Shown: piece after piece, positions 33,405 to 60,422 of the stretch
How the letters are laid out: the number at the start of each line of letters is the position of its first letter
How positions within the stretch are numbered: position 1 is the first letter of the stretch
Origin: Eledone cirrhosa
Taxonomy: Eukaryota
NCBI GenBank assembly: GCA_964016885.1
Contig: OZ024740.1
Location: 360,592,001-360,656,000, forward strand
Direction of reading: 5' to 3'
Length of the DNA: 64,000 nucleotides
Notes under the pieces: model-generated
Told to the model about the DNA's origin: nothing
The model's database searches: none
What the model saw: the letters and a program-made list of their open reading frames with translations, nothing else
Translations under genes and position numbers: made by a program

Positions 33405-33452
33405 ATGCAAATTAGGCTGCTCAGCTGTTAATATGCATAAGGAAAGTATATA
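33405..33452 (+). promoter_or_regulatory. Putative snRNA-type promoter cassette (octamer, PSE-like, TATA)
   Basis: ATGCAAAT-N8-TCAGCT-N20-TATATA; near-identical spacing at 60285. Confidence 0.45.
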
Positions 33453-33481
33453 CTTTCAGAGGTTCAACCATCTGGCAGGAA

Positions 33482-33530
33482 GGTACGGTGCAGACGATAG
33501 ATAATAAGCTTGAAACTAGTACATCGTTCC
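33482..33530 (+). ncRNA. Type I hammerhead, degenerate core
   Basis: GGUACGGUG-CAGACGA-UAG..CUU-GAAA-CUAG-UA-CAUCGUUCC; palindromic CUAG, GUA triplet; U>A in core. Confidence 0.6.
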
Positions 33531-33830
33531 TTTGTCAGTGTTCTCCACAATAAGTCTATATGTTAAGTGTGCATATATCTATGCATATAATCAAGTATGC
33601 ATGCATAATATCTGTGTGTGTGTGTATAAATCACAGTAAGGAGAGAAATACACATAAGTGTATGTCTCAGATTGTGGTTTTATATCCCCTATAATCGGAC
33701 AATTATATTTATTTGTATTTCTCTCCCTACTATGATTTATAAAGAGCTCAGAATTTGTTCCTTGAGCTTATTGGATTGTAGGGAATTATGTCGAGTTTTT
33801 AACCCATCATCTTAATTTGCTATATATATA

Positions 33831-34200
33831 TGAAGGCACATGGCTTAGTGGTTAGAGCATTGGGTTTGCAATCGAAAGGTTGTGAGTTCAATTCTCGGAC
33901 CGGGTGAGCAAGACACTTTATTTCACATTGCTCCAGTTTACTCAGCTGTAGAAATGAGATGATAGGACTAGAGTCCCTATCATTCCACTGCAAAGTGGTC
34001 GTGGAGGTGCCACAGCAAAAAAAGCACCCAGCCCACACTGTAAAGCGGACGTGTAGGCCCCACGGAAAAAAAGCACCCAGCACTCACTGTAAATGAGGTT
34101 GGTGTTAGGAAGGACATCCAGCTGTAGAAACCAAGCCAGCATCAGTTCCCGTCCCACCCTTGCAAGCAGGGAAAAGCGGATGTAAAATGATGATGATGAT
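33831..34200 (+). mobile_element. Meta-type SINE with RTE tail
   Basis: Same family as 4137-4478. Confidence 0.85.
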
Positions 34201-34234
34201 TTATAGATATATGTATTATGTTATATGTATATAT

Positions 34235-34415
34235 ATGTGGTTTGACAGTATCGGTAGAGGGTCGGACAACATGCTTTAAAGAGTTACGCCCTTTTCTGAT
34301 TTGAGTTCAAATCTCGCCAAGGTTAACTTTGCCTTACATCCTTACGCGGTCGATAAAATAAAGTACCAGTAATACTAATTGCTGGCCTTGTGCCAAAAGT
34401 AGAAACAATTATATT
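34235..34415 (+). mobile_element. Nin-type SINE
   Basis: Nin core and tail. Confidence 0.8.
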
Positions 34416-34449
34416 ATATATAAATATATATTATATATACATATATATT

Positions 34450-34890
34450 CATCATTCATCATCATTTCATTTTACGTCCACTTTTCCCTGCTTGCAAGGG
34501 TGGGACTGGAACTGATGCTGGCTTGATTTCTACAGCTGGATGCCCTTCCTAACACCAACCTCATTTACAGTGAGTGCTGGGTGCTTTTTTGCCGTGGCAC
34601 CTCCACGACCACTTGCAGTGGAATGATATGGACCCCAGTCCCTATCATCTCATTTCTACAGCTGAGTAAACTGGAGCAATGTGAAATAAAGTGTCTTGCT
34701 CAAGGAAACAACACATCACCCGGTCTGAGAACTCACAACCTGTGGTTGGTGTTAGGAAGAGCATCCAGCCGTAGAAAACCCGCCAGACAGTCCTATACGA
34801 GCAAGACAACCAATCTTGCCTCAAGTGGGAAAATTCCCGTCCAAACCCATGCAAGCATGGAAGATGGACGTTAAACGATGATGATGATAT
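34450..34890. mobile_element. Meta-type SINE (minus, to ~34738) fused to an RTE family B tail (plus)
   Basis: Reverse complement of the 4137 family, then a match to ~38757-38907. Confidence 0.75.
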
Positions 34891-35488
34891 ATATATTATA
34901 TATACATATATATTATATATATACATATATATTTTATATATACATATACATATATATTATATATATATATATATATATCTATATATATATCATCATCATC
35001 ATCATCATTTTACGTCTGCTCTTCCCTGCTTGCAAGGGTGGGACGGGTATTATTCAGCACAGCATCTCTCCACTTGTCACGGTCCTTTGTGATATATATA
35101 TATATTATATATATATACATATATATGTTATATTATATTATATATACATATAATATATATGTATATATAATATAATATATATGTATATATAATATAATAT
35201 ATATTATATATACATATATATATATACATATATATATATATTATATATACATATATATATATATTATATATACATATATATATATATTATATATACATAT
35301 ATATATATTATATATACATATATATATATTATATATACATATATATATATACATATATATATATATTATATATACATATATATATATATTATATATACAT
35401 ATATATATATATTATATATACATATATATATATTATATATACATATATATATATTATATATACATATATATATATTATATATACATAT

Positions 35489-36414
35489 ATCATCATCATC
35501 ATCACCGTTTTACGTCCGTTCTTCCACGCTAGCATGGGTTAGACGGGTTGTCCTGTTGTGGGCAGTGTCTGGTCGGCTGACCATGCCTTGCTCATACAGG
35601 AACTGATCTGGCTTGATTTCTACAGCTGGATGCCCTTCCTAACACCAACCTCATTTACAGTGAGTGCTGGGTGCTTTTTCGTGGCGCCTACACGTCCACT
35701 TTACAGTGTGGGCTGGGTGGTTTTTTGCCGTGGCACCTCCACGGCCACCTTGCGGTGGGGGGGGGGGGGGCATATTGTTTATATGCTTCAGCATGTACCC
35801 ATGGGAGGTCGGGTACCCTGTATTACTGCGTGACGCCAGAAGTCACGGTCGTGTGTCATTGACTTTGAGAGGTGTAGTTGGGTAAGGTCGGCTTTTATCA
35901 CCTCATCCCAAGTCATCTTGGGTCTCCCCACTCCGCGGTTTCCATCAACTTCTAGTGCTCTGCACCTTTTTATGCAGCTGTCATCCTTCATACGCATCAC
36001 ATGTCCATACCAGCGTAACCGCCTCTCCTGCACGCAGCATTTGATTCCTCTTATGCTCAGTCTCTCTCTCAATTCATTTATGCTTTGTCGTTCACGTATA
36101 TTACTGTTACACATCCATCGGAGCATGCAGGCTTCGTTTCTCTCTAATCTACGTAAGTCTTCCACCTTCAGCGCCCAGGTCTCACTACCATGCAACATCG
36201 CTGTTCGGATACACGCATCATACAGTCTGCCTTTCATTCTGAGGGAGAAGCCTTTTGCAGCTAGCAGTGGTAGTAGTTCCCTAAACTTCTTCCATCCCGT
36301 TCTTACCCTAGTTATTGTACTTTCTGAGCACCCACCTCCGTTGCTAATTCGGTCACCTAGGTAGCAGAAGCTGTCTACTGTTTCTACAGGGCCCTCCCAG
36401 AGATTGGTGGTACT
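35489..36414 (-). mobile_element. RTE family A 3' fragment
   Basis: ORF 35788-36237; (ATG)n tail; flanked by TA arrays. Confidence 0.93.
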
Positions 36415-37075
36415 TATATATATATATTATATATACATATATATATATATTATATATACATATATATATATATTATATATACATATATATATATATTATA
36501 TATACATATATATATATATTATATATACATATATATATATATTATATATACATATATATATATATTATATATACATATATATACATATTATATATACATA
36601 TATATACATATTATATATACATATATATATATATTATATATACATATATATACATATTATATATACATATATATACATATTATATATACATATATATACA
36701 TATTATATATACATATATATATACATATTATATATACATATATATATACATATTATATATACATATATATATACATATTATATATACATATATATATACA
36801 TATTATATATACATATATATACATATTATATATACATATATATACATATTATATATACATATATATACATATTATATATACATATATATACATATTATAT
36901 ATACATATATATACATATTATATATACATATATATACATATTATATATACATATTATATATACATATATATACATATTATATATACATATATATAAATTA
37001 TATATACATATATATAAATTATATATACATATATATAAATTATATATACATATATATAAATTATATATACATATA
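36415..37075. repeat. (TATATATACATAT)-type minisatellite
   Basis: Regular ~20-24-nt TA/CA units. Confidence 0.9.
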
Positions 37076-38907
37076 AAGGAGATGCCCTAGATAGGAGTAA
37101 CTATAGAGGCATTAAATTAATCGACCAGGTCATGAAGGTCACGGAAAAAGTAATAGCGCAACTCATCAGAGAGAGAATTGATCTAGATGAAATGCAGTTC
37201 GGGTTTGTGTCAGGCAAAAGTACCACAGACACTCTTTTCATTGTACGACAACTACAGGAGAAGTACCTAGCTAAAAGTAAACCCCTATACTTAGCTTTTG
37301 TCGACTTGGAGAAAGCCTTCGACAGAGTCCCCCGTTCTATTATCTGGTGGGCTCTTAGAAAACTTGGTGTTGATGAATGGCTTGTGAGAGCTATACAAGC
37401 CATGTATAAAGAAAGTCAGCAAGGTTAGAATTAACAACGAACATAGTGAAGATTTAGCATAAAAGTTGGTGTTCATCAGGGCTCTGTTCTTAGCCCCCTA
37501 CTATTTATTATTGTCCTTCAGGCTATAACAGTGGAGTTCAAGACCGGCTGCCCATGGGAACTCCTATATGCAGATGATCTAACGCTCATAGCTGAATCAA
37601 TGGCCGAGCTAGAGAAGAAATTCCAAACATGGAAGCACGGCCTAGAATCAAAAGGCCTTAAAATTAACCTGGCTAAGACTAAAGTTCTAGTTTGTAGGAA
37701 AGAAAATAAGGCGCCGGTCCCTTCCGGGAAATGGCCATGCTCAGTGTGTAGGAAAGGCATAGGTAGAAACTCCATTTTATGTCCCAAATGCAAAGTATGG
37801 GTGCATAAAAGATGTAGTGGGATCACAGGTAAGCTAACTAAGAACATAGATTTTACATGTGGCCGGTGCTCTGGTGCAATAAGTAGCAGCAAGTACCCAC
37901 AAAATACTAGCTCTTTCAATTGCGCAGAGGGTTCTATAGAAATAGTGGACAGCTTCCGTTACCTGCGTGACAAAATCAGCAGTGGAGGAGGGTGCTCTGA
38001 AAGTACAGAAGCTAGAGTCAGAACTGGATGGAAAAAGTTCAGAGAGCTTATACCACTATTAGCCGCTAAAGGGTTCTCCCGAAAAATGAAAGGCAGGCTG
38101 TATGATGCCTGCATACGAACAGTAATGTTGCATGGCAGTGAGACCTGGGCATTGTGTGCAGAGGATATACGCAGACTAGAGAGGAACGAAGCTTGCATGC
38201 TCCGCTGGATGTGTAATAGTAATATATGTGAATGGCAAAGCATTAACGAAGTAAGGGAAAAATTAGAAATAAGAGGGATCAGATGTTGTTTACTCGAGAG
38301 AAGGCTACGTTGGTATGGTCACGTGATGCGCATGAAAGACGACAGCTGTATAAAAAAGTGCAGGGCAATAAAGATAGACGGTAGCCACGGAGTAGGCAGA
38401 CCCAGAAAAACCTGGGACAACTTGATAAATTCCAACCTCACACACTTACACCTCTCCAAGACAATGTCACTGGACCGAGATCTTTGGCGGTACTCAGTAA
38501 TAGAGAAGACCCGCCTTACCTAAATACAAAGTAAAACCTACTACAGTCAGTAGGCACCTCTAACAAAATACACCCCCGTCCCACCACCCCCACCCCATCC
38601 ACACCGCCCCTTTCAATGTAAAGTTATGTTGGTGCCACAACATCCAGGCCGAAACAAATGAGGTCGTGTAGGTGTCACAACAAAAAACACACAGTCCACG
38701 CTGTAATGTGGCCATTTAGGCAACACGGTAAAAACCTCCCAGCCCCCCACTGTAAATGTGGTTGGTGTTAGGAAGGGCATCCAGCTGTAGAAAACCCGCC
38801 AGACAGTCCTATGCGAGCAAGACAACCACTCTTGCTTCAAGTGGGAAAACTCCCGTCCAAACCCATGCAAGCGTGGAATATGGACGTTAAACGATGATGA
38901 TGATGAT
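37076..38907 (+). mobile_element. RTE LINE family B, 5'-truncated
   Basis: ORFs 37132-37428 and 37531-38523; (ATG)n tail. Confidence 0.95.
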
Positions 38908-38910
38908 ATA

Positions 38911-41900
38911 TCATCATCATCATCATCATCAACGTTTAACGTCCGTGTTCCACGCTTGCATGGGTTTGGACGGGGGTAGTCCCACTTGAGGCAAGAGTGA
39001 TTGTCTTGCTCGCATAGGACTGTCTGGCAGGTTTTCTACAGTTGGATGCCCTTCCTAACACCAACCACATTTACAGTGTGGGTCTGGGAGGTTTTTACCG
39101 TGTTGCCTACACGGCCACATTACAGCGTGGACTGTGTGTTTTTTGTCGTGACACCTACACGATCTCATTTGTTTCGGCCTCGATGGCGCGGCACCAACAT
39201 AACTTTACATAGAACGGGGTGGTGTGGATCGGGTGGGGGTGGGGGTGGTGGGACGGGGTGTATTTTGTTAGAGATGCCTACTGGCTGGAGTAGGTTTTAC
39301 TATATATTTAGGTAAGGCGGGTCTTCTCTGTTACTGAGTACCGCCAAAGGTCTCGGTCCAGTGACATTGTCTTGGAGAGGTGTAAGTGTGTGATGTCGGA
39401 GTTTATCAGCTCGTCCCAGGTTTTTCTAGGTCTGCCTATTCCGTGACTACCGTCTATCTTTATTGCCCTGCACTTTGTTATACAGCTATCGACTTTCATG
39501 CGCATCACGTGTCCATACCAACGTAGCCTTCTCTCGAGTAAACAACATCTGATCCCTCTTATCTCTAATTTATTCCTTAGTTCGTTTATGCTTTGCCGTT
39601 CACGTATATTACTGTTACACATCCAGCGGAGCATGCAAGCTTCGTTCCTCTCTAGTCTGCGTATATCCTCTGCACACAATGCCCAGGTCTCACTGCCATG
39701 CAGCATTGCTGTTCGTATGCAGGCATCGTACAACCTGCCTTTCATTTTTAGTGAGAACCCTTTAGCAGCTAATAGTGGTATAAGCTCTCTGAACTTTTTC
39801 CAACCAGTTCTGACTCTAGCTACAGTACTTTCAGAGCACCCTCCCCCACTGCTGATTTTATCGCCCAGGTAACGGAAGCTGTCCACTATTTCTATAGAAC
39901 CCTCTGCGCAATTGAAAGAGCTAGTAGTTTGTGGGCACTTGCTGCTACTTATTGCACCAGAGCACCGGCCACATGTAAAATCTATGTTCTTAGTTAGCTT
40001 ACCTGTGATCCCACTACATCTTTTATGCACCCATACTTTGCATTTAGGACATAAAATGGAGTTTCTACCTACGCCTTTCCTACACACCGAGCACGACCAT
40101 TTCCCCGAAGGGACCGCCGCCTTGTTTTCTTTCCTACAAACTAGTACTTTGGTCTTAGCCAGGTTAATTTTAAGTCCTTTTGACTCTAGGCCGTGCTTCC
40201 ATGTTTGGAATTTCTTCTCTAGCTCGGCCATTGATTCCGCTATGAGTGTCAGGTCGTCTGCGTATAGGAGTTCCCATGGGCAGCCTGTCTTGAACTCCTC
40301 TGTTATAGCCTGAAGGGCAATAATAAATAGTAGTGGACTGAGAACAGAGCCCTGATGGACGCCGACTTTTACGCTAAACTCTTCACTATATTCGTTGTTA
40401 ATTCTAACCTTGCTGACTGTTTCTTTATACATGGCTTGTATAGCCCTCACAAGCCATTCGTCAACGCCTAGTTTTCTAAGAGCCCACCAGATAATGGAGC
40501 GGGGGACTCTGTCGAAGGCTTTCTCCAAGTCGACAAAAGCTAAGTAGAGGGGTTTACCTTTAGCTAGGTACTTCTCCTGTAGTTGTCGTACTATGAAAAG
40601 AGCGTCTGTGGTACTTTTGCCTGACACAAACCCGAACTGCATTTCATCTAGGTCAATTCTCTCTCTGATTAGTTGCGCTATTACTCTTTCCGTGACCTTC
40701 ATGACCTGGTCGATTAATTTAATGCCTCTATAGTTACTCCTATCTAGGGCGTCTCCTTTACCCTTATAACAGTTAACGATGATGCTGCTATGCCAGTCCT
40801 TCGGAACAACCCCGTTCTGTACGACTTGGTTAACTATGCGGGTGACCATGGTGTGTCCCACCGTGCCAGATGCCTTCAGCATCTCAGCAACTATTTCCGA
40901 AGGCCCAGCCGCCTTACCAGTCTTCATATCCTTGATTGCCTTACTTATTATACTCCCCTCGACTAACACTGCTGGTCCCTCTATTGGGTCGATATGGGGG
41001 AGACTGCCTTTCTCCCAATTATTCTCCTCATTTAGAAGCCTTTCATAGTGACACTTCCAAGCTACCTTCTTATCAGCGTCGGTGATGGCAAGTGTGCCAT
41101 CGTCGTTTAGTACACACTTCTCCCCGACAATATCACGGTTTTCCTTGACGCATTGCCTAGCAATCCTGAACACCTCACGTTTTTGGTCATCGCGTTGTAG
41201 AACATGCTTGAACTTTCTTTCCTCAGCTTCCCTTCTTGCTAAGTACACTTGTCTCCTAGCTTCCCTCCTGGCCACTTGATAGTCCTCTCTACTTCCCCCA
41301 TCCCGCCATACTTTCCAAGCCTGCTTTTTGGCCTTAATTGACCCCTCCACCTTACTGTTCCACCACCATGTTACTCTCCTCCTGCCTACAGGCCTGCTCC
41401 AGCCACAGACCTCGTCTGTCGCCAACAGCAGGTTTGCTTTCAGAAATTCCCACTCTCCCTCTATATTGTCCGACTCTAAATGTTCTTCCTTACTGTCGAA
41501 AGCATCAAGTAATATGCTTTGAAATTTATTCCTGGCTGTGGGGTCCTTTAGCTTCCATATTTTCCTCCTGAGGATAGTCCTCTTCTGTTGTCGAGTACGT
41601 CTCGTCCTGACTATGAGGTCGCTAATTATCAGTCTATGTTGGGAGGTGCATTCTTCATGGGGGAGGGATTTAGTGTTAACAACAGACACTCTGTCACGTC
41701 TTCTGGTAAGGATATAATCTACCTGGCTTGTGTGTTCCCCGGATCTATAGGTGATCAGGTGATTGTCACGTTTTTTGAAGTTAGTGTTACAGATAGTTAG
41801 GTTATTTGCATCACAGAATTCCAGGATTCTGGAGCCTTCCTCATTTCTAGTACCAAACCCATAGCCTCCATGGATTTCGTCGTAGCCGTCACAATGTTGT

Positions 41901-42447
41901 CCAACGTGACCATTTAGGTCGCCTGCGATAATTATATAGTCACTGTCGGATATTTGGGAGGTAGTTAGCATCAGTGTCTCATAGAATCTGTCTTTTATAG
42001 TGCCGGGCAGTCCGGATTGGGGTGCGTACTCAGATATTACTGTCACCGTAGTTCTATTGAGGACAAGTCGTATTTTAATTATTCTGTCGTTCACTCTATT
42101 TACGTCTATTATCTTATCTGCCCACTTTTCTGCTACCATGATTCCTACTCCACCCAGCCCATCGTCGTTTCCCACCCAGAAAAGCTTATAACAACGTTTT
42201 TTACCCTCAATGAACCTAGCAGACCCACCCCTCCACCTGGTCTCTTGAATACAACAAGCATCGACCTCCTTACGTTCAAGCATTTCTACAACCTCGTTAG
42301 CGCGACCCTTTAGGGTGCCTACATTTATGGTACCAACTCTGAAGTTTTGGATTGCGTTTGGGGGTTGGGGGCGGTGAGGGGCGGGGGGCGATGGGGTTAT
42401 GTTAGCCGTCCGCGGTCGAAACAATGAGGAGTGCTCGCATTCTCGGC
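38911..42447 (-). mobile_element. RTE LINE family B, near full-length
   Basis: 3' UTR with (ATG)n tail plus an uninterrupted ORF. Confidence 0.95.
39308..42424 (-). CDS. RTE ORF: AP endonuclease + reverse transcriptase + PHD finger (1038 aa, intact)
   Basis: TINVGTL, CIQET, GDLNGH, DYIL, SQH (APE); LEKAFD, QGSVLSP, YADD (RT); CSVC..CPKC..HKRC..CGRC; start codon is TTG, true start uncertain. Confidence 0.9.
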   Translation of the reverse strand: MFRPRTANITPSPPAPHRPQPPNAIQNFRVGTINVGTLKGRANEVVEMLERKEVDACCIQETRWRGGSARFIEGKKRCYKLFWVGNDDGLGGVGIMVAEKWADKIIDVNRVNDRIIKIRLVLNRTTVTVISEYAPQSGLPGTIKDRFYETLMLTTSQISDSDYIIIAGDLNGHVGQHCDGYDEIHGGYGFGTRNEEGSRILEFCDANNLTICNTNFKKRDNHLITYRSGEHTSQVDYILTRRRDRVSVVNTKSLPHEECTSQHRLIISDLIVRTRRTRQQKRTILRRKIWKLKDPTARNKFQSILLDAFDSKEEHLESDNIEGEWEFLKANLLLATDEVCGWSRPVGRRRVTWWWNSKVEGSIKAKKQAWKVWRDGGSREDYQVARREARRQVYLARREAEERKFKHVLQRDDQKREVFRIARQCVKENRDIVGEKCVLNDDGTLAITDADKKVAWKCHYERLLNEENNWEKGSLPHIDPIEGPAVLVEGSIISKAIKDMKTGKAAGPSEIVAEMLKASGTVGHTMVTRIVNQVVQNGVVPKDWHSSIIVNCYKGKGDALDRSNYRGIKLIDQVMKVTERVIAQLIRERIDLDEMQFGFVSGKSTTDALFIVRQLQEKYLAKGKPLYLAFVDLEKAFDRVPRSIIWWALRKLGVDEWLVRAIQAMYKETVSKVRINNEYSEEFSVKVGVHQGSVLSPLLFIIALQAITEEFKTGCPWELLYADDLTLIAESMAELEKKFQTWKHGLESKGLKINLAKTKVLVCRKENKAAVPSGKWSCSVCRKGVGRNSILCPKCKVWVHKRCSGITGKLTKNIDFTCGRCSGAISSSKCPQTTSSFNCAEGSIEIVDSFRYLGDKISSGGGCSESTVARVRTGWKKFRELIPLLAAKGFSLKMKGRLYDACIRTAMLHGSETWALCAEDIRRLERNEACMLRWMCNSNIRERQSINELRNKLEIRGIRCCLLERRLRWYGHVMRMKVDSCITKCRAIKIDGSHGIGRPRKTWDELINSDITHLHLSKTMSLDRDLWRYSVTEKTRLT

Positions 42448-42449
42448 TC

Positions 42450-42565
42450 TTTCCATTCTGAGTTCAAATCCCGCCATGGTCAAGTTTGCCTTTCATCCCT
42501 ACGGGGTCGATAAAATAAAGTACCAGTAATTGCTGGCCTTGTGCCAAAAGTAGAAACAATTATAT
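42450..42565 (+). mobile_element. Nin-type SINE, 5'-truncated
   Basis: B box, Nin core and tail. Confidence 0.8.
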
Positions 42566-43249
42566 ATAAATATATATTATATATACATACATATATATAT
42601 CATATATATCATATATAATATATATATATATAAAATCAAATTCTCCGTTTTCCTCTCTGATTTAAATTATTATGTTTTTAATATGTCTAAATTTGCTGGA
42701 CCTTTCCTAAAAACTAAACTTCTCCTAGTCAAATTCTCCTTCTAGTATTGTTATTAAATAATTATTCTAGAACCTTCCTGCATCTCACTCGCAAACTTTG
42801 TAAACACTTGCTCCCTCTCTCACCCCCCCCCCCCCCTAATCGCAAGTATAAAATAAATATTGCTGGCTTCCAACGACAGGATTGATCTATCTAATCTATC
42901 TTAAGGCTGATCTGTTGATTTTGAGAATGTAAGCAAAACCTGTCTTTTCTTTATTTCCATAGTCTCCTCAATTAAGCAGTGTTTTTAAAATCTTATTCAT
43001 ACCACTCTAAAATTCAAATTCTCCGTTTTCCTCTCTGATTTAAATTATGATGTTTTTAATATGTCTAAATTTGTTGGACCTTTCCTAAAAACTAAACTTC
43101 TCCGAAAGTCACCCATTTCCCGCCCTCCCACCTCCACACACCACTATTGCTATATGGTCCAATCATAACTCATCGACTTTAGTAAGTTCTCTAACAAATC
43201 AGTATAGCAAAGCTACAACCCCGGTTACTACTCCTTAAGTTTAGACCTG

Positions 43250-45553
43250 TTTGATGGGTTGACTGCGGAAATTTGAAAAGTCTAAGCACTCAATGACAAT
43301 GTCACAGATAAAGATAAATTCATCTCCTGCTGCAAGACGAGAATACAAGGACCCCTCTTTATTTCAGACACGGATGACCAACAAAATCCCGTCTCCCACA
43401 CCCCTCCATCCCACCCTCCCAGCTTCAGAGTTGGTACCATGAACGTAGGCACATTGAAAGGTCGCTCAAATGAGGTTGTAGAGATGCTTGAACGTAAAGA
43501 AGTTGATGTTTGTTGTATTCAAGAGACTAGGTGGAGAGGGGGTTCTGCCAGATTCATCGTGGGTAAAAAACGTTGCTATAAACTTTTCTGGGTGGGAAAT
43601 GACAACGGACAGGGTGGTGTAGGAATTATGCTAGCTGAAAAATGGGTAGATAAGGTAATTGACGTAAATAGAAAGTTCAAGAAAGTTCAAGCATGTTCTG
43701 CAACGTGAGGACCAAAATCGTGAGGTGTTCAGGATTGCTAGACAATGTGTCAAGGAAAACCGTGATATTGTCGGGGAGAAGTGTGTCCGTAATGATAATG
43801 GTGTACTTGCGCTCACTGATACTGATAAGAAGATAGCCTGGAAGTGTCACTACGAGAGACTATTAAATGAGGAGAATACATGAGAAAAAGATAGTCTGCC
43901 CCAAATTGATCCAATAGAAGGACCAGCGGTGCAAGTTAAAGGTAGTATAATAAGTAAGGCAATCAAAGATATGAAGACAGGCAAGGCATCTGGGCCTTCG
44001 GAGATAGTTTCTGAGATGTTGAAGGCACCTGGTATGGTGGGACACACTATGGTCACCCGTATAGTGAACCAAGTAATACAGAATGGGGTCATACCGAAAG
44101 ACTGGCGTAGCAGCAACATCATTAACTGCTACAAAGGTAAAGGGAATGCTCTAGATAGGGGAAACTATAGAGGCATTAAGTTAGTTGACCAGGTCATGAA
44201 GGTCACAGAAAGAGTTATAGCGCAACTAATCAGAGAGCGAATTGATCTAGATGAAATGCAGTTTGGGTTTGTGTCAGGTAAAAGTACCACAGACGCTCTT
44301 TTCCTTGTACGACAACTACAAGAGAAGTACCTAGCTAAAAGTAAACCCCTCTACTTAGCTTTTGTAGACCTGGAGAAAGCTTTTGACAGAGTCCTCCGCT
44401 CCATTATCTGGTGGGCTCTTAGAAAACTAGGTGTGGATGAATGGCTTGTGAGAGCTATACAAGCTATGTATAATGAAACAGTCAGTAAGGTTAGAATTAA
44501 CAATGAATATTGTGAAGAATTTAGTGTAAAAGTTGGCGTTCATCAAGTCTCTGTCCTTAGCCCCATCTTATTTATTATTGCCCTTCAGGCTATAACAGAG
44601 GAGTTCAAGACCGGCTGCCCATGGGAACTCCTATACGCAGATGATCTAACGCTCATAGCTGAATCAATGGCTGAACTAGAGAAGAAATTCGAAACATGGA
44701 AGCAGGGCCTAGAACCAAAAGGCCTTAAAGTTAATTTGTCTAAGACCTAGTTTGTAGAAAGGAAAATAGGGCACAGGTGCCCTCAGAGAAATGGACATGC
44801 TCAGTGTGTAGGAAAGGAGTAGGCAGAAATTCCATTTTATGTCCCAAATGCAAAGTATGAGTACATAAAAGATGTAGTGGGATCACAGGTAAACTGTCTA
44901 AGAACGTACACTTTATATGTGGCCAATGCTCAGGTGCAATAAGTAGCAAGTGTCCAAAGGATACTAGCTCCTTCCATTGCCCAGATGGTTCTATAGAAAT
45001 AGTAGACACTTTCCGTTACCTGGGTGATGAAATCAGCAGTGGTGGAGGGTGTTCTGAAAGTACAGTAGCCAGAGTCAGAACGAGATGGAAAAAGTTCAGA
45101 GAGCTGTTGGCCACAAAAGGTTTCTCTCTAAAAATGAAAGGCAGATTGTATGATGCCTGTATACGAACAGCAATGCTACATGGCAGTGAGACATGGGCAT
45201 TACATGCAGAGGACCTGCGTAGGCTGGAAAGGAACGAAGCATCCATGCTCCGTTGGATGTGTAATAGTAGCCAGAGTCAGAACGGCAAAGCATAAATGAA
45301 CTAAGTGAGAAATTAGGAATAAGAGGGATCAGTTGCTGTTTACTCGAGAGAAGACTACGTTGGTATGGCCACGTGATGCACATGAATGACGACAGCTGCA
45401 TAAAAAAGTGCAGGGCGATCAAAATTGATGGTAGTTACGGAGTAGGTAGACCCAGAAAAACCTGGGATGATCTGAGAAATTCCAACCTCACACACTTACA
45501 TCGCTAAGACAATGTCTCTGGAGCGAGATCTTTGGCGCTACGCAGTAATACAG
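43250..45553 (+). mobile_element. RTE family B-related copy with internal deletion
   Basis: APE N-terminus (43439) jumps from IDVNR to KFKHVLQR near 43670-43680; frameshifts and stops. Confidence 0.9.
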
Positions 45554-47270: not shown

Positions 47271-47345
47271 ATATATATATATATGTATATCCTTCTCTAC
47301 TCCCACTCTTTTTCCAAGCCTTCCATGCTAGTCTTTTGTCTCTAA

Positions 47346-50166: not shown

Positions 50167-50362
50167 AAACTATATATATGTGTTTGTGTCTATATTGTAT
50201 CTGTATTATTTTTGACCGTCGGTCAGTCAATGGCAACATTGAGGACCGAGTAAGTTAGATTACCAATATAAAAGACAGCGAGAAGCGAAAACCAACCAAA
50301 CAGTGAGTGTGTTCTGTTATTAATTCTGGCAATATTACACAAATATGACCCTCCCAAAGTAT

Positions 50363-50399
<37 letters not shown>

Positions 50400-50509
50400 T
50401 ATAGAGAGAGAGAAAGAAAGAGAGAGAGAAAGAGAGAGAGAACTTCTTAGAATGTCTATATGCAGTCCAAAGAAGTAGCAGTTTGCTCTGTTTCTGTGAT
50501 TGGTTATTT

Positions 50510-50895
50510 CCATTGGTGATGTTGATGGTTGTAGTGAGGTGCCATGGTGACGGAATGATCAATTTAGCCAAGAACGATGGTGATGAGAATGCTGATTAAA
50601 TTTATTATGTATGCAATCATTGAAATAGCAATGTTGGTGGTGGTGGTTGAATGGTTGGTGATGGCAGTGGTGGTAATGATGATGAAGGTGGTGTTGCTGT
50701 TGTTGATGGTGATGATGATGGTGGTGATGACGGTGGTGATGATGATGAAGATGGTGATGATAATGATGATGGTGCTGTTGCTGGTGATGATGATGGTGGT
50801 AATGATGATGGTGGTAGTGATGACGGTGCTGGTGATGATAATGGTAATGTTGCTATTGTTGGTGTTGCTGTTGTTAGTGGTGATGATGATGACAA
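50510..50895. repeat. (GAT/GGT)n trinucleotide tract
   Basis: Degenerate GAT/GGT/GTT repeats. Confidence 0.9.
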
Positions 50896-53802
50896 CAATA
50901 ATAATTGTTTCTACTTTAGGCACAAGGCCAGCAATTACCCAGTGCATTACTGGTACTTTGCCTTTCATCCTTATGGGGTCGATAAAATAAAGTCAACCTC
51001 GGGTTTTCATCCTTACGGGGGTCGATAAAATAAAGTACCAGTAATGCACTGGGTAATTGCTGGCCTTGTGCCTAAAGTAGAACAATAATAATGATGACAG
51101 AGATGGATGATGATGATAGATAAATAGATAAAGCGAAAATAATATAAGCTAATTTAGAGCCAATTAACCCTATAATTACTATCACGCTTGAGTAAAAGCA
51201 ATTAAAGGCAATATTTCAGCAAGTCTTCAGAAATTATTCTGTCCAACAGACCAGACCGCCCACTGTTACATCATACCACCCCACCCTCTGTTGTTTCTCC
51301 TCAACTCCATTACTCTGTTGCTATTACTCCAGTCATCAAAGACAACACTATTAACATAACAACCACCACCACCATCAACACCCCCTACTGCCACCAACAC
51401 CTCCCTGCCACCACATCCCACCCCTGCCACCACCATCACCATCACCACCGTCTGCACAACCACAATCACTTCCAAACGTGGATTATGTGTTATAACACCC
51501 TCGCGTGTCATTCATAAACGTGACTACTGTGTGTATAAATATCTATTAAGACAGACAGCAGAGCTGTTAAGCAATCATGCTGAGCAAATAACAATTTAAT
51601 TTTTTGACTTTTATCTAAATATTTATCTATTTGACATTTTCCTTTAAAAAAAAGATTAAAACAATAAATAGAAAAAGAGAAAAGGATTTAAAAATGGGGG
51701 TTGGTGAGATTAAATAATGAAAAATAAGAGGAAGGGGAAAGGGTAGGGGCAAATTCCACATTCTTGGCTGGGCTGTATATTTCAGCTCTGCCCTGTGGAC
51801 ATGATGGCAAAAACATTGCCATAGGGAACAGCCAGTGACACCCACTGCCTCACACAGCTCATTCCTCAGGTCGGATGTACTCTTAACATTTTTCTTCTAC
51901 CAGAATATTCTTTTACTTTTTCCTTCCTAATGATTATTTTAACATGCAATTAACTCCTATTTGTGTAGTTCCAAATCCAGATATTATGTAAGATAAAGCC
52001 TTTACCACAAAAATACAATAGTATATATAGAGTAATGTAAATGTTAAAGGGTTAAAATACTTAAAACACTCACAAAATATTAAAAATAGTCATTACAAAT
52101 GCTTCTCCGAAGCAGAAAATATCAAACAGTGGGGCTATGCTAAACCCTGTTCCTTTCTATTGTATCTTTTTGAAGAGCTCTGAAAATAAAATTTTGCTGA
52201 TTCAATTGTTGTTGAAAGAACAGAACAGAGCACAGTAAAGTGGTTGGTGATTAAACAGACAATATAGGGTAAAGAGGAGTAGTCTCCAGTCAGGTCAAAC
52301 ACATGACAGATTCTTTAGTGCTGATGCCACAATAAAATGCACTCGGTACACTCTGTAAAATGGTGGTGTTTGTGTCACAATAAAGTTCATCCAGTACACT
52401 CTGTAAAGTGGTTGGAATTAAGAAAGGCATTCAGTCACGGAAAAATTACCAAAATATGGTCTCTCCAACCCATCTAGTCATGAACAGTAATGACCCACCC
52501 AACCTATGCCAGGATAGAAGTGCACACAAAATGATGATGTTGATGGTAAAGATATCAAACTGCTTCTCATTCTACATTACCAGGCTATATATTTTTAAAT
52601 GTTTATATTATCCTAAAAAATCTTCCACCATAGTTTTATGTAAGAACTTTTGTTGCGAAAGCCCCTCCTCCTCCTTCTCATAAATAGCCATGGGTTTTGC
52701 ATCCAAGACTGATTGAACATGGATTTACTTGTGAGACACAAGCCTGTGCAGGGTGTTTTGCAGAAGACCAGCAGTTGCATGCATGCAAGTCTCCTCTTTC
52801 TATAGCACTGATGTTGTCCAAGGGAAAGACAAAGACTGATCCAGTCAAGTTTTCTATGGCTAGATGCCCATCCTATCACCATTCACAAGGTATTTATCAA
52901 GTTATGGTTATATATAGAAGAGATTTGCCAAAGGTGCCAAGTAGTGGCTCTGAACACAGAACCTAACTCTCAAACCAGTCATGCCATAAGTAAATATTCA
53001 TATTTTAAATATTAAAAAAACAAAATACAAAACAAGGATTCAAAGGATTCTTAAGTTGTGTCAAGAGCATGGCAACATCTTTAGTGTTGGTGCCATAAAA
53101 TGCATCCAGTATACCGTAAAGTGATTGGTGATAGGAAGGACATCTAGCCATAGAAAACTTGCCAAACAAAAGGTTCGAGAGAACTCTTTAGTTATGTTAA
53201 AGACATGACATCTCTAGTGCTGGTGCCATGATAAAACTAAAATATGGAAATGGGAGCAAAGTTGCAGCTCCCAACTCATCTGACAGATCAATATCTCTGA
53301 TTGAGTATTGACTTGATCTATGACAACCTGTCCAAGCCCTGTTAGCAGTGAAAACAAGAGACAAAGAAATATGACAAAGGGGAAAAAAAAAATAAAATAA
53401 AATAAATAAATAAATCAATGGTAAAATGAGTGTTTGGCTTATATTCAAGGTCAATATTTTGACGATTTCCCCCCAACTTCAGTAAATCTATATTACTAAA
53501 ACAGAGAATGTCTGTTTGTCTGTCCAATCACAAAAACTCGAGAACCAAGTTTTTTCAAACTTTACACATAATATTTATGGTCCCGTGAGTGTTCTGAGCC
53601 AAAAGAATTTCAAATTTCCAATGCCCCAGGGACTGCATTAGGCGATTTAGCAATCTCTCTCTATAATTCTTAGTCATTCTCTTTTCAGAGAGATACATAG
53701 ATATAATGTTGCACCCTTATAATATCTGTCTGTATGCCTGGCTGTCTGCATTACGTCATTATGACACGGTGTGTGTGTATATATGTATATATCTGACAAA
53801 CT

Positions 53803-54280
53803 GAGCACTAGAAGTTGATGGAAACCGCGGAGTGGGGAGACCCAAGATGACTTGGGATGAGGTGATAAAAGCCGACCTTACCCAACTACACCTCTCAAAG
53901 ACAATGACACACGACCGTGACTTCTGGCGTCACGCAGTAATACAGGGTACGCGACCTCCCATGGGTACATACTGAAGCATATAAACAATATGCCCCCACT
54001 CCCCCCACCGCAAGGTGGTCGTGGAGGTGCCACGGCAAAAAAGCACCCAGCCCACACTGTAAAGTGGACGTGTAGGCGCCACGAAAAAGCACCCAGCACT
54101 CACTGTAAATGAGGTTGGTGTTAGGAAGGGCATCCAGCTGTAGAAATTAAGCCAGATCAGTTCCTGTATGAGCAAGGCATGGTCAGCCAACCAGACACTG
54201 CCCACAACAGGACAACCCGTCTAACTCATGCTAGCGTGGAAGAACGGACGTAAAACGGTGATGATGATGATGATGATGAT
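53803..54280 (+). mobile_element. RTE family A 3' end
   Basis: Matches ~46447-46932. Confidence 0.9.
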
Positions 54281-54396
54281 AGTGTGTAATGTTTTTCGAA
54301 ATATTTACTTCTGCGTTCATAGATTTATTATTTTAGTTTCAAAAGATCCCGTTAAGGGTGAAAGCACCGATTCTTTGCTTAAACTTTAATCTGTTA

Positions 54397-54432
<36 letters not shown>

Positions 54433-54435
<3 letters not shown>

Positions 54436-55282
54436 GGTGCGGACGATATTTGTTCGCAATTTTCAACTACTAATTTTATGCAAATTTTTTTTACTTCCGT
54501 TGTCACTCTTGTCTTCATAAAAACAGTGACTATATTTCCACTATTTATTTTCAGAATAATTGATTATGAATAATTTTGAACCTCCAAATTTGTAGAAGAG
54601 ACAGGGAGTTCTTGGAATCTGCGCCGGGAGGACAAATAAGGCCAGAAGATCAACTCCCAGAACAACAGGTGGCTCGCTGTCTCATCCAAAGACGTGCCCA
54701 GAGTCATGCAGACAAAGTTTCCAGCGACAACATTGGTCTTAGGTGTCGTCAGCAGTCAAGGTGAAGTCATGCCGCCTCCTTTCTTCCCTGAGGGCCTCAA
54801 GCTGAACACCGATGGCTACATCCGCATTGGATTGACCAGGTAGCTGCAGGTAAGCCGTACGTGTGGCAGCAAGACTCAGCGCCCTGCCATACCAGCCGAA
54901 AGACCCAAGCCTGGCTGTCAGAGAACTTCGTCGACCACACTTCACCTGACATCTGGCCTCCCAGCTCGCCTGACTGCAACCCCCTCAACTTCTTTGTGTG
55001 GGGCGCAGTGGAACAAGACACCAACAGATCTAGCTGCAATATGAAAGACGATCTGAAGGCCAGGATCACAAGTGCTTTTAGGGGCCTAAGTCGGGGGACA
55101 GTGACAAGGGCCTGTAGCCGGTTCCGTCATCAAAGCCAATGGCGGGTTTATTGAGTGAGATCGAAAGAACAAGTCATGAAGACAAACTGACCCAAGTTTG
55201 ATAAATAAATCTTAAAAAATAAAACTACTGTGTTATTTTTTCCTAGACAGTAATCTTGCGAACAGATATCGTCCGCACCCTG
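54433..55282 (+). mobile_element. maT (DD37D) Tc1/mariner element, internally deleted
   Basis: TIRs CAGGGTGCGGACGATAT(T/C)TGTTCGCAA within TA; WQQDSAPCH..WPPSSPDCNPLN with 37-residue spacing, third D changed to N. Confidence 0.88.
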
Positions 55283-56516
55283 TATATATATATATATATG
55301 TAATTATATATTTGTGTACAGATATTTTTGCATACACATATAAACAAAAGTATTTATTTCGCGATAAAGTATTGATTTTCTTTGAACAGAAAAAAACCCT
55401 GGTAATGTACGACAAATTTTTTTTATAAGCACAAAATGTAGACACCAACCCAAGGCCGAGGTATTCTGTACTTCTTGTACTGTTATTTATATATTCGTGT
55501 ACAGATATTTTTTGCATACACAATAACAAAATATAAACAAATGTATTTACTTCACGAGGCTCGAGAAGGATAAATCTATATCAAATATATAAGAACCCTA
55601 GAGCAAATCCCGAGTAATGCCAGGCCATTCTGCTAGTAAGGTGCTAAAATATCTGAAGTGATTATTTTACAATGAAACAGTTTTTCTACATTTACTAGAT
55701 CATCCTGAGTGTTATTATGCATTCCCTTGAGAACATTCCAAACAAATTTTTATAATTTGAACTTTTTAGTACATAAACATCCTCTACATTTGCACGCGTG
55801 CCACTGTTTTTCACTGTAACTTTATACTTTTTCTTTCAATCTTATTTCTGCCTTGCCTTATATTTTATTTCTCTTGCTCTCTCCCACCTCTTTTTCTTGC
55901 TCTGCCTCTCCCTTCTACTCTGAATCTTTATACAATGTTCTCTTAGTCAATCTATTTCTTTAAACTATTCCCTATTCATTAAGTCTCCCTCTGTACATAG
56001 TTTTGATCTCCCTAGTGTTTTTTATGATATCCATAAAGAAACATTAAACAACATTAAAAAAAAAACATATCGTAACACTTTAGCATTTAAACCGGCGTAT
56101 TAGACTAGAATTCTCTCCCCTCTTTCTGTTCAAAGTGGCTATAACTGGCCGCTCATACTTATGTTCAGGTATTGTTCTTAAAATAAGTAACATTAAAATT
56201 TCATATTCGATATTATGTGAGGTAAAGATATTTAAACATTTTAAATATCAAAATATTAAAACTTCATAAATATATTCTCTACTCACAACATCTAAACATG
56301 TGTTAATTAGCTGCCTCGGCTTATACACAGGGTTTGGATTTTTGTCCATTTTTCGGACATAAAATAGGGGGTTGGCTGAAATTCGAGTATATACGGCAAG
56401 TTTTGACTTGGTCTACAATGATCTGTCCAACTCTTGTTAGCAGAGAAAACAAATGTTAAATGAAGATAATGATGAAAACAATGAAATTAAATAAGAAAGA
56501 GTAAAAGATGACATAC

Positions 56517-56642
56517 TTGAGTTTGCGACATGTGTGGGCTAGGTTGTTATGTAGGGTTTCCCACTTCTCGATTGTAATCTGGTTACTAACACAGCGGACC
56601 TTCTCTAGGGCGTCCAGGAAATACTGCTCTGCTGTCGTATAA
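56517..56642 (-). CDS. CDC16: CDC16/APC6 exon (TPR)
   Basis: YTTAEQYFLDALEKVRCVSNQITIEKWETLHNNLAHTCRKLK; AG/GT; 126 nt. Confidence 0.96.
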
Positions 56643-56834
56643 CTGCAGGATAACAACAAAAACAATAGTAATAATAATAATAATTTCTAACAAAAGCACA
56701 AGATGATTATCTGTAAAGAGAATTGCTATTTATAAAGATTATCAGTATTATACACATTGGCAAAATTCAAAATATTAAAGGATGTAACTAAATATCACAT
56801 GGTATTTCGTCACACCCTCTTCTTTAATGATAAT

Positions 56835-57330
56835 AATAATTGTTTCTACTATTGGCACAAGGCCAGCAATTACCCAGTACATTAATGATAATAATGATTT
56901 CTTATTTAAGCACAAAGCCAGTAATTTTGGGGGAGGGACAAGTCGCTTAAATCGACCCCAATGCATTACTGATACTTTATTTTATCGAACCCGTAAAGAT
57001 GAAAGGTAAAGCTAACTTTGGCAGGATTTGAACTCAAAAGATAAAGAACCAGAACTATATGCTGCAAAGCCTGTTGTCCGACATTCTACCGATTCTGCCA
57101 ATCAAACACCATTTTAATGATGATAATCATGTTAATGATTTCTAATTTAGATACAAGGCCAGCAATTTGGGAGGAGGGAGAAAGTGAATTATATCAATCC
57201 CCAGTACTTCACTAGTACATATTTTATCCTTCAAACAAGGATAAAAAGAAAAGTTGACCTCAGTGGGATGAAATAAGAATGTAAAGAGCCAGAACAAATA
57301 CTAGAAAGCATTTGTTTAAAGCTTTAATGA
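56835..57330 (-). mobile_element. Nin-type SINE cluster
   Basis: Two to three reverse-oriented copies. Confidence 0.7.
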
Positions 57331-57550
57331 CATCACAGGCAGTGATATTTGTTTATGTTTCACACAAACAGAGATACCACTGTTCAACAGTTATACATGC
57401 AAAGAACTGTGCCTTACTTAAAAAATAAGTGAGGGTTGGTATCAGTAAAAGCATCCAGCAATAGAATACTGCCTCAAAATGTCTCTTAAAACCCATGCCA
57501 GCATGGAAAAGTGGATGCAATGATGACGATATATCTGTAAGTATACTTAC

Positions 57551-57703
57551 TCCTGGTTCTGGAAAGCAATTACTCCCATCTCATGAAGAACAAAAGGGTC
57601 TTCTGGAGCAATGGTCAGTGCTTGACTAAAGAATCTTTCAGCCAGTTTAGAGTTGTTGGTCAAACCATACTCCAAGCCAATGTATAGGACAGGGAGATGA
57701 CAG
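57551..57703 (-). CDS. CDC16: CDC16/APC6 exon (TPR)
   Basis: CHLPVLYIGLEYGLTNNSKLAERFFSQALTIAPEDPFVLHEMGVIAFQNQ, near-identical to vertebrate CDC16; AG/GT; 153 nt. Confidence 0.97.
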
Positions 57704-57929
57704 CTGGAATGTATTGATTTGAAAATAATCAGTAAAAAAAGAAGAGAAAAATGAGGGGGTAATATTTGAAACTGATGTACTAATTAACTCTTTTGATATC
57801 AAACCACATGAAATCATCCCTGGTTCTATATTACATAACTGTTTATTTAAATGTTTACATTTATCTAAAAACCTCCCATCATAATTTTATATAAGAACCT
57901 TTGTTAAGTTATGCTCGAAACACCAGCTT

Positions 57930-58118
57930 AATAATTGTTTCTATATTAGGCACAAGGCCAGCAATTTTGGGGGAGGGAAAAGCTGATTAGATCAACACCA
58001 GTGCATGACTGGTACTTTATTTTATCGACCCCCATAACGATGAAAACAAAGGGCTGTAACTCTATGTTGCAAAGCATTGTGTCTCATGCTCTACCGATAC
58101 TGCCAATCCACCACCCTT
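57930..58118 (-). mobile_element. Nin-type SINE
   Basis: Reverse-complement core and head. Confidence 0.7.
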
Positions 58119-59374
58119 TCACCAGCTTCATAATGACAATGTTATTTTCCAAATTGTTGATTATTTTCAAAATTAATTGAAAATTGGCTCCTCCACTGGG
58201 ATATCCAAAGGACAACCAACTTATAGGCATAAAGTTAATCACCAATACACTCCAACTTCTTGTTTACACGTGCTGACTCATTTCTATGATCTTCAGAAAT
58301 AGTTAGCCGCAGATTATCTTCACTCAAACTACCCCCAACTAACTGCTAGTCTCATTCCACTTCCACAGGCTACTTTAACACTTTAGCATTCAAAGCAGCC
58401 ATATCCGGCCATAATTCTCTCACCTCTTTCTGTTCAAACCAGCCGTAATCAGCCACTCATACCAATGTTACAGTATTGTTCCCAAAATAACATCAAAATC
58501 TCGTAGCTTCGACATTATGTAAAATAAAGCCTTTACTGTGAAAATACAATAGTAAATATAGAGTAATGTAAATGCCATCCTCATGCCACATCCACTCTAG
58601 CTACCCTGACTCACTGCTAATCTAACGCTACTTCCACTCAGAGAGCCCCCCACTCACTGTTAATCTCATGCCACCTGACCTCAGAGGCATTCCTTTTTGA
58701 CTCACTGCTAGTGTCATTCTACCTTCACTCCCGATACTGCTAGTCTCATTACAGCTTCACTCAGGCTACAACTCATTGCTAGTCTCATGCTAACTCAGCA
58801 AGGTCACATGACAAGTTTCTCCATTTTACTTTATCTGCATCCTCTACCCTCATCAATCTCCTGGCTCCATTTCCTCTTCCATCATCTTTAGCCATATCTT
58901 TCTTGGGTGGCTGTGATTTGAGGACTCCATAGTGAGTATAGTAAGTGGTGAAATCAATGCAGATAATGCCTCAGAAGAGTCAATGAGAGTGATCATTACT
59001 AGAAATAGCAACCAAATCTTTCTCAAATCACAGCTTACCATTTATAAAAAAAAGAACACAATGAATAATGCAGTTCTTGTAAAACTATACTCATGGAGTC
59101 CTTTCTGAGGCAATGTTTTATAATCAGGTGCCCTTTCTGGAATCAACTCTTTTAGTTGTCTCTTACAACATGAAAGGATATGGCATACCTGTTCTAAACT
59201 GAATATATACAGTAAGTTCTTCATATACTGTCTGAAGAAAAGAAAATGATGGGATGGTCACAGATAGAATGCCTTTAATCCTATGATGTTATTGTTATCA
59301 GTCTTGCCTCAGGACTGACACTAACATGTTCCAGAATAGAGAAGTGGTCAACACAAATCTTACAAACTACTGAC

Positions 59375-59500
59375 CCTTTCATTAGTTGGGATGCTGTAAA
59401 ATAGGCAGCCATAGCTTGGTCGTGTTCTTGGTCAACTGCAAATGAGTGGCCGTATGCTAACCATGCTGGGCCATACATACGGTCTAATGTTGTAGCTTTC
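59375..59500 (-). CDS. CDC16: CDC16/APC6 exon (TPR)
   Basis: KATTLDRMYGPAWLAYGHSFAVDQEHDQAMAAYFTASQLMKG; AG/GT; 126 nt. Confidence 0.97.
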
Positions 59501-59952
59501 CTGAAACAATAGATGATACATATAGACATAATTAGTTGTGCATACAAATGTAGATTTCTGTAAGGTGGTCATGCTGGTGACATGACAAAAAGCACCCAAT
59601 CCACCCTGTTAGATGGTCATTTTGGTGCCACAATAAAAAGCACCCAGATCACACTGTAATGTGGTCACCTAACCTGACAACCTGTCTAACCCATGTAAGT
59701 GTGAAAAAATAGACATTAAACAATGATGATGATGAGGATGAAGAGTGTATGTATATACGTGTATATCAGCATAGCGGTGAACAGAAAAAAAAAAAATATA
59801 TATATATAAATAGGATTTTTCTTTAAGCATAGCGTTATACAAATATGTATAGAAATTTCGTATTTCTAAAAAAACACGGTTTTAGGAAGCTGTAGCTATG
59901 CAAACACAGGGGCTAACGCCCTCTGGTGGTGTCCAGCAGAAGCAAGGGGGAC

Positions 59953-59998
59953 AACCGTCTATGCAGTTCAGGCTTGACTGGCCTTCTTCAGGACGGTT
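59953..59998 (-). ncRNA. Type I hammerhead (GAAC variant)
   Basis: AACCGUC-CUGAAGA-AGGC-CAGUCAA-GCCU-GAAC-UGCA-UA-GACGGUU. Confidence 0.75.
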
Positions 59999-60284
59999 CC
60001 TACCACCGCTTGCAACTGCTGGACTTGAAAACAGTCGAGAATATATAGTTTTCTCGTCTGTATAAATGAGGTGATTAATCTAATTTGCATATGAAGCTGC
60101 ATAAGTTGGCTCAACTTATAATAGAATCAGAGGGCGTTAGCACCAGTGTTTGCATAGCTACGGCTTCCTAAAACCGTGTTTCTTTAGCAATACAAAATTG
60201 CTATACATATTTGTATAACGCTATGCTTGAAGCAAAATCCTATTTCTATTCTATTATAAGTTGAGCCAACTTATGCAGCCTCAT

Positions 60285-60333
60285 ATGCAAATGAGATTAA
60301 TCACCTCATTTACACAGACGAGAAAACTATATA
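60285..60333 (+). promoter_or_regulatory. Putative snRNA-type promoter cassette
   Basis: ATGCAAAT-N8-TCACCT(CATTTACACAG)-N21-TATATA; mirror octamer at 60083-60090. Confidence 0.5.
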
Positions 60334-60376
60334 TTCTCGACTGTTTTCAAGTCCAGCAGTTGCAAGCGGTGGGAGG

Positions 60377-60422
60377 GACCGTCCCAAAGAAGGCCAGTCA
60401 AGCCTGAAATACATAGACGGTT
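60377..60422 (+). ncRNA. Type I hammerhead (CCAAAGA variant)
   Basis: GACCGUC-CCAAAGA-AGGC-CAGUCAA-GCCU-GAAA-UACA-UA-GACGGUU. Confidence 0.65.

Follow-up and report, generated by a model that had tools for sequence, protein, structure and literature searches.

Do small self-cleaving repeats carry the promoter from which they are transcribed? The question is raised by a 64,000-nt stretch of the Eledone cirrhosa genome (assembly GCA_964016885.1, contig OZ024740.1, positions 360,592,001 to 360,656,000; hereafter the window), in which a preliminary description had noticed two hammerhead ribozyme units sharing an octamer, TCASCT and TATATA at near-identical spacing within dissimilar sequence. All elements of that layout were confirmed: the octamer ATGCAAAT lies at 33405 and 60285, with TCAGCT and TCACCT, respectively, at +16, TATATA at +42 (33447) and +43 (60328), and the hammerhead-core positions at +86 (33491) and +99 (60384). 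The two units, members of the families called A and B below, showed no blastn similarity downstream of the cassette at E<1e-3, in agreement with the dissimilarity first reported. The preliminary description had overlooked a third cassette, which lies at 60090 on the minus strand as the inverted partner of the copy at 60285. We propose that the cassette is probably a promoter of the host small nuclear RNA (snRNA) type lying inside retrozyme units, where it would drive their own transcription, by RNA polymerase II (Pol II) most plausibly in the two families of the window. We infer its promoter activity, start site and polymerase from sequence.

The cassette was found to be kept far beyond the window. 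A scan of the 3.0-Gb genome for the exact octamer-TCASCT-TATATA pattern gave 998 + 980 = 1,978 matches, against 0 + 0 for the reversed pattern, which excludes chance. The octamer, while present, is part of a longer shared box of 11 nt, ATGCAAAT(T/G)AG; this box, written ATGCAAATKAG, had 40,173 matches (1,169 when reversed), and 27,364 matches were obtained when a CTGAYGA core was required 70-100 nt after it (0 when reversed). TCASCT holds in the window but was too narrow a definition: family A often has TCAGCC and other families CCAGC, CCACT or CCATT, so that only YCA at about +16 is general across families. A metagenome scan with the box and core examined 116 stretches of an estimated 3,300 or so, among which nine had either a TATA element or a stem II and none had both; these hits were read as chance.

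Clustering of 124 box-anchored segments from the fetched loci yielded six families (A with 42 members, B with 21, F with 16, G with 13, D with 11 and C with 3) and 18 singletons. We class these repeats as non-coding units of 320-500 nt with a type I hammerhead, that is, as retrozymes without long terminal repeats (non-LTR retrozymes), of which at least six families carry the cassette. The units are short, low in GC, tandem and devoid of LTRs, with tandem lengths of 421-502 nt in A, 461-467 nt in G and 321 nt in B, some of them beyond the published 400 nt. Among the representatives tested, blastn connected A to both C and G, and B, D and F showed no link to any other family; the box is thus kept between units that cannot otherwise be aligned, although a deeper common ancestry is possible. 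Intact CUGANGA..GAAA cores were present in 24/42 copies of A, 16/21 of B, 13/13 of G, 13/16 of F, 5/11 of D and 0/3 of C, and family G matched Rfam HH9 with an E value of 2e-6, under the gathering score. Stem III is a short palindrome that differs by family: ACTAGT in A (22/24 intact cores) and G (13/13), and ATGCAT in B (14/16); it was palindromic in 6/13 intact cores of F and 1/5 of D. Cleavage by paired hammerheads has been described for motifs with a weak helix III (PMC7761336), and a palindrome kept through sequence changes fits this mode.

The copies terminate at either of two discrete positions, where they adjoin (TA)n, and often have an inverted truncated partner. Tandem and inverted arrays sit inside (TA)n, and their layout is circularly permuted with the cassette inside the unit, as the preliminary description had supposed. 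Such tandem, inverted and tail structure has been described for Penelope-like insertions (PMC8557442), and the tandem/inverted insertion with tail and microsatellite target that characterises a Penelope-like pseudo-LTR was present here. Conversely, no link to an open reading frame (ORF) with reverse transcriptase and GIY-YIG domains was found: in a tblastn screen of box-plus-core loci (four of them 10 kb long, the others about 3 kb) with nine Penelope-like element (PLE) protein queries, which cover few PLE families, 8/104 loci matched, and in all three that were inspected the ORF was split from the unit by (TA)n. The idea of family A as the pseudo-LTR of neighbouring PLE ORFs was rejected. The insertion structure and the lack of an attached Penelope ORF therefore fit non-LTR retrozymes. 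The 3' ends of copies were also considered as marks of an RNA polymerase III (Pol III) terminator, and rejected because they lie at two TA-like positions, past the T-run.

To what promoter does the cassette correspond in the host? Host snRNA genes were fetched by Rfam search. All five promoter-bearing Pol III loci that were compared (three distinct U6 promoters, U6atac and RNase MRP) carried the 11-nt box, with 0-2 mismatches, at -76 to -78 and a TATA box at -30. The U1, U2, U4 and U5 genes had YCA(G/A)(T/C) at -55 to -58 in 21/21 loci and the box in 0/21. The distance from the YCAG core to TATA was 25-27 in 14/16 non-redundant Pol II promoters and about 31 in the Pol III genes. Near-duplicate U1/U2/U4/U5 array copies had been thinned to 21 and then 16 for these counts; 14 dispersed U6 and 11 U6atac matches, in which no box was seen by eye, were treated as retro-copies and left out, as were five of ten U6-array copies with an insertion between promoter and gene. 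RNase P was atypical (TCAGT at -66, TATA at -34, no box within two mismatches) and was counted in neither class.

Several further features of the host genes were observed. Most of the U1/U2/U4/U5 loci (L048-L050, L070-L076, L337-L356) carry a TATA-like box around -30, together with an AATTAA recognised by eye around -90, whereas vertebrate genes of this class are TATA-less. The RNase P gene (L100, G000:C24:12936134) has a U1/U2-type TCAGT core about 32 nt before TATA, a Pol III-like spacing, with a degenerate box only. In a U6 array (L034, G000:C19:31.78-31.84 Mb) a second U6-type promoter, with a box-like 8-mer and TATA at U6 spacing, lies 420-480 nt downstream of each U6; no Rfam family was found downstream of it, and it may belong to an unannotated Pol III RNA or be a duplicated promoter.

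The retrozymes match these host promoters in two ways. Their box is that of the Pol III loci, and the YCA-to-TATA distance in A, B and C is 26-27, the host Pol II value, with TCACC in place of TCAG in B; the resemblance to host snRNA promoters put forward in the preliminary description thus holds. The box-to-TATA distance was 42 in A (37/42), 43 in B (18/21) and C (3/3), 41 in G (13/13), 40-43 in F (7/16) and 47 in D (7/11), some copies in these counts having been selected on spacing. When copies were chosen without regard to TATA, a TATA element lay at +38 to +50 in 9/9 of A, 1/1 of B, 13/13 of G, 6/7 of D and 8/14 of F, compared with at most one match per family in flanking control windows. 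The cassette is thus kept among family copies; its absence from them had been named as one of the observations that would count against the proposal. The box upstream of a TATA box expected of a type 3 Pol III promoter was present, and the host Pol III box-to-TATA distance of 46-48 was reached by family D alone, A, B, C and G being 3-7 nt shorter. This refines the "snRNA/U6-type" label given earlier, for the window families fall 4-5 nt short of U6 geometry. An offset of 4 bp between classes is also described in Drosophila, where the Pol II PSEB (positions 30-37) and the Pol III TATA (34-41) differ by that amount (PMC1761439). Hammerhead repeats with exact U6 spacing were seen at L103, L113, L118 and related loci (family D), and at L125.

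On this layout we propose the following cycle. Transcription would start about 72-73 nt after the beginning of the box (TATA+30), just 5' of hammerhead stem I; this position falls on C|A in 35/39 copies of A and 16/20 of B. The transcript would read through T-runs and through the promoter of the next unit. T-runs of at least 5 occur within 65 nt upstream of the box in 13/42 copies of A, 5/21 of B, 11/13 of G and 3/3 of C, and since arrays include the promoter despite these runs, read-through is needed, which suits Pol II. Paired hammerheads would then cut out a unit-length RNA carrying the promoter in permuted form, and this RNA, once circularised, would serve a Penelope-like reverse transcriptase as template for new DNA copies, as proposed for metazoan retrozymes (PMC7229834). 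Every new array would thereby bring its own promoter. The preliminary description had suggested an internal promoter that is re-copied in the permuted unit, making a self-transcribing parasite; layout and host match support this idea.

Several observations weigh against this scheme. No host gene examined has such a hybrid cassette: the box was seen only in Pol III genes, and the spacing was confined to those of Pol II. Against a matrix of host Pol II promoters the window copies scored modestly, at 6.6 for A (rank 322) and 2.2 for B (ranks 1,775 and 1,776) among 127,874 window positions. By family the scores were 15.1 for C, 6.6 for A, 2.2 for B, 1.7 for F, -5.9 for G and -15.6 for D, compared with 9.7-27.8 for host promoters in leave-one-out scoring and best scores of -1.9 to 3.9 for the host Pol III class; only C is within the host range, A, B and F are above background and below that range, and G and D fail. 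The sequence match to host Pol II promoters is thus weaker than the geometric match. The AATTAA seen by eye upstream of the host Pol II genes has no clear counterpart in the elements, and the TATA register is ambiguous by ±2 within TA runs. The families were found by searching for the box, so their list is biased toward box carriers; a hammerhead-first Rfam search gave 72 matches, and in 0/30 fetched was there a box within 130 nt, all 30 belonging to one other family (one of them with a PLE-like reverse transcriptase ORF downstream). Likewise, four other hammerhead-like motifs in the window, minimal ones at 2433 (-), 2569 (+), 3828 (-) and 50129 (+) that include one inverted pair, have no box upstream. 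The cassette therefore belongs to one subset of the hammerhead repeats, those that are non-coding. Finally, the window copies lie near an exon of CDC16 (described below), so host read-through is possible for them, and the promoter bases are predicted to form two hairpins at the RNA level in B (z -1.5 to -4.0) and G (z -3.8 to -5.1), so selection at the RNA level may contribute to retention of the cassette.

A rival explanation, which we consider unlikely though stronger than the others, is that the cassette is a U6-like type 3 Pol III promoter in all families, with a sub-unit RNA ending at the T-run before the next box and leaky termination supplying the promoter-containing RNA that spreads. 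In its favour are the presence of the box, among host promoters, in those of Pol III only, the host U6 spacing of family D (47 in 7/11), and the stated dominance of a TATA box for Pol III in vertebrates (PMC1761439). The distances in A, B, C and G speak against it, and a TATA-like element near -30 in the host Pol II snRNA genes means that TATA is no Pol III mark in this species. Copies of A, B, C, F and G lack any T-run of at least 5 from +72 to +170, and the A and B bodies are without T4, which favours it, but these T-free stretches are not significant (shuffle P of zero runs 0.11-0.50), a T5 occurs within the body of the one G unit that was tested, and in family D a T-run directly follows the ribozyme and stem I in 6/11 copies. 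In family A, moreover, the tails continue for about 10 nt past the T-run and stop at TA-like junctions.

The predicted hairpins also bear on a second and rather improbable alternative, that the cassette owes its retention mainly to RNA structure (two hairpins before the hammerhead, serving circle stability or recognition by the reverse transcriptase), its promoter role being vestigial and transcription coming by read-through from flanking genes, a route proposed for retrozymes (PMC7761336). Box and TATA regions of differing sequence fold into hairpins in A, B, C and G, and 4/5 host Pol III promoters do not fold so (z +1.0 to +2.2; the fifth, -2.4). Among host promoters z ran from +1.3 to -1.9 for the Pol II class and from +2.2 to -2.4 for the Pol III class. 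The hairpins fit a promoter that is part of the RNA, yet they also lend weight to this alternative. Folding was, however, weaker in A and C and barely seen in F and D, most tested copies of the last two having z near zero while box and TATA are nonetheless kept; and hairpins need neither an 11/11 match to an untranscribed box upstream of host genes nor host-like TATA distances in two discrete classes. Spread of the units as DNA satellites, with promoter and ribozyme hitch-hiking and no re-copying through RNA, would suit the long homogeneous arrays (about 45 units over 21 kb at C1:70.056-70.077 Mb, and arrays of 466-nt units), but we hold it to be very improbable, given the many dispersed copies with inverted truncated partners and two discrete ends joined to (TA)n, which is the Penelope-like pattern (PMC8557442), and a stem III that stays palindromic through sequence changes.

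The proposal of a promoter carried within the unit can be taken further, tentatively and at somewhat less than even probability. The retrozymes may have captured a host snRNA promoter, combined a box of the Pol III class with a spacing of the Pol II class, and changed polymerase from one family to another through a TATA shift of 4-5 nt. Most families would then be Pol II self-promoting RNA circles, with family D a U6-like Pol III gene for a hammerhead RNA of about 80 nt; the same bases would serve as DNA promoter and RNA hairpin, and some 40,000 boxes could compete with snRNA genes for factors.

The window copies themselves bear the cassette on decayed ribozymes. The family A copy (33262..33543, +) comprises a unit end, tail, promoter cassette and hammerhead, and is truncated at about 33543 at the start of an unrelated repeat. 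An inverted partial copy (3' end and tail; 33167..33261, -) is its partner: it pairs with 33274-33368 through 95-nt arms that are 96% complementary, and the tail ends at about -35 to -37 from the next box. The box ATGCAAATTAG (33405..33415, +) is identical to that at -77 of a host U6 locus (L032). It is followed by TCAGCT (33421..33426, +), which resembles the core of a proximal sequence element and is to be compared with YCAGT/C at -55 to -58 in the host Pol II snRNA genes, and by TATATA (33447..33452, +) within the palindrome GAAAGTATATACTTTC; host spacing predicts a start site 30 nt on, at 33477 (C|A). The type I hammerhead (33477..33531, +) has the palindromic stem III ACTAGT at 33515-33520, a damaged core, CAGACGA, at 33491, and the family cleavage position after 33521.

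The family B insertion (59804-60526) consists of an inverted copy and a partial tandem with a 321-nt period. The inverted copy (59804..60127, -) has its own cassette and tail (box 60090-60080, TCACCT 60074-60069, TATATA 60047-60042), with the core CTGAAGA at 59991 and GAAC for GAAA. The partial tandem (60128..60526, +) contains the end of a previous unit, tail, cassette, hammerhead and body, and ends in (TA)n. Its box, ATGCAAATGAG (60285..60295, +), is identical to those of a second host U6 locus (L031, -76) and of RNase MRP (-77); TCACCT (60301..60306, +) is a weaker match to the host Pol II core, and TATATA (60328..60333, +) lies in a predicted hairpin loop, with a predicted start at 60358 (C|A). 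The hammerhead (60358..60444, +; fold z -5.4 for 60350-60445) has a long stem I, the damaged core CCAAAGA at 60384 (family majority CTGACGA) and a broken stem III palindrome (family form ATGCAT), the family cleavage position falling after 60415. All three window cores thus differ from the family majority, and an Rfam scan of the window at the gathering cut-off gave 0 matches, the damaged hammerheads included. Each family has a type I hammerhead, as the earlier claim of self-cleaving units implied, but the window copies themselves are likely to have lost self-cleavage. Contigs from three runs of one sample, aligned to 60236-60520, carried the family-majority core and head-to-tail joints, although such contigs cannot show starts or expression. 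The box, TCACCT and TATATA were free of variants reaching 10%, as was the intervening 60296-60326, so that the contigs do not single out the motifs.

Other features of the window were recorded. Positions 33545-33820, adjoining the family A copy, were rejected as part of its unit and form a separate hairpin-rich repeat, with a 100% identical copy 52 kb upstream (G000:C1:360573234) that suggests a recent local duplication or an assembly duplicate. It is followed at 33838-34200 (+) by what by eye is a tRNA-like short interspersed element head and 49-nt tandem repeats ending in GAT repeats. An exon of a CDC16/APC6 homologue (E 3e-11) lies at 57550-57633 (-), the retrozyme copies being possibly within or close to that gene. 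A 1,051-codon open frame of a long interspersed element, encoding endonuclease, reverse transcriptase and PHD-like domains, occupies 39308-42463 (-), with many broken relatives in the window. Broken reverse transcriptase fragments at 5050-6912 (-), accompanied at 5090 by a minimal hammerhead, are related to an ORF of another locus (L211) and are labelled Penelope-like from known motifs; a Pfam search of two PLE-like ORF pieces gave no match, and the label rests on those motifs and tblastn.

How does the proposal stand beside known hammerhead repeats? The schistosome satellite is reportedly driven by a tRNA-like promoter with A and B boxes downstream of the start, not by an upstream box, proximal sequence element (PSE) and TATA. 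Its own internal promoter, which is assigned to Pol III (Ferbeyre 1998, as cited in PMC2220036), is the feature that it would share with the units described here. Newt satellite 2 is a closer precedent, being a hammerhead tandem repeat with a dimer-dependent ribozyme (PMC2220036) and, inside the repeat, an snRNA-type promoter used by Pol II (Coats, Zhang and Epstein 1994, as cited in PMC2220036). It is, however, one vertebrate repeat, whereas here several families have a TATA box, a host Pol III-class box, and Pol II-like and Pol III-like spacings side by side. Compared with the host promoters, the window families combine, inside a repeated unit, a box and TATA from the Pol III class with a YCAG core and a 25-27 nt spacing from the Pol II class.

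Metazoan non-LTR retrozymes (Cervera and de la Peña 2020, PMC7229834) share with these repeats non-coding tandem low-GC units, one type I hammerhead each, a self-paired circular fold and coexisting Penelope-like elements. They measure about 170-400 nt compared with up to 440-500 nt here, and the main text of that paper analyses no promoter, whereas six families here have host snRNA promoter boxes. A 2020 review from the same group states that plant and metazoan retrozymes seem to lack promoters (PMC7761336), and an LTR promoter of plant retrozymes is already known (PMC11722881). Penelope-like pseudo-LTRs resemble our units in their partial tandems, inverted 5'-truncated partner, tail extension, microsatellite targets, minimal hammerheads and promoter within the repeat (PMC8557442; promoter work of Schostak 2008 as cited there). 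Unlike them, the units have no linked ORF, and the sampled ORF-linked hammerhead family had no box (0/30). Full-text searches of a literature with few subscription papers, and without the supplement to PMC7229834, turned up no account of invertebrate retrozymes with an snRNA-type promoter, and PMC10886601 held nothing that bears on the question. Precedent thus exists in newt satellite 2, and what is new is the presence of host snRNA promoter boxes across several retrozyme families.

Expression of animal retrozymes is abundant in every tissue that has been tested, an oddity among retroelements. If the proposal is true, a host-matched, constitutive snRNA promoter within the unit would explain this expression and would generalise what was an isolated result in the newt. 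It predicts a start at box+72/73, Pol II dependence in the families spaced at 42/43 and Pol III dependence in the family spaced at 47; the window families being 4-5 nt short of U6 geometry, the promoter idea could hold even without Pol III dependence. The host comparison also maps the U6 and U1-type promoter architecture of this animal, and the families would form a natural series for how PSE-TATA spacing chooses the polymerase.

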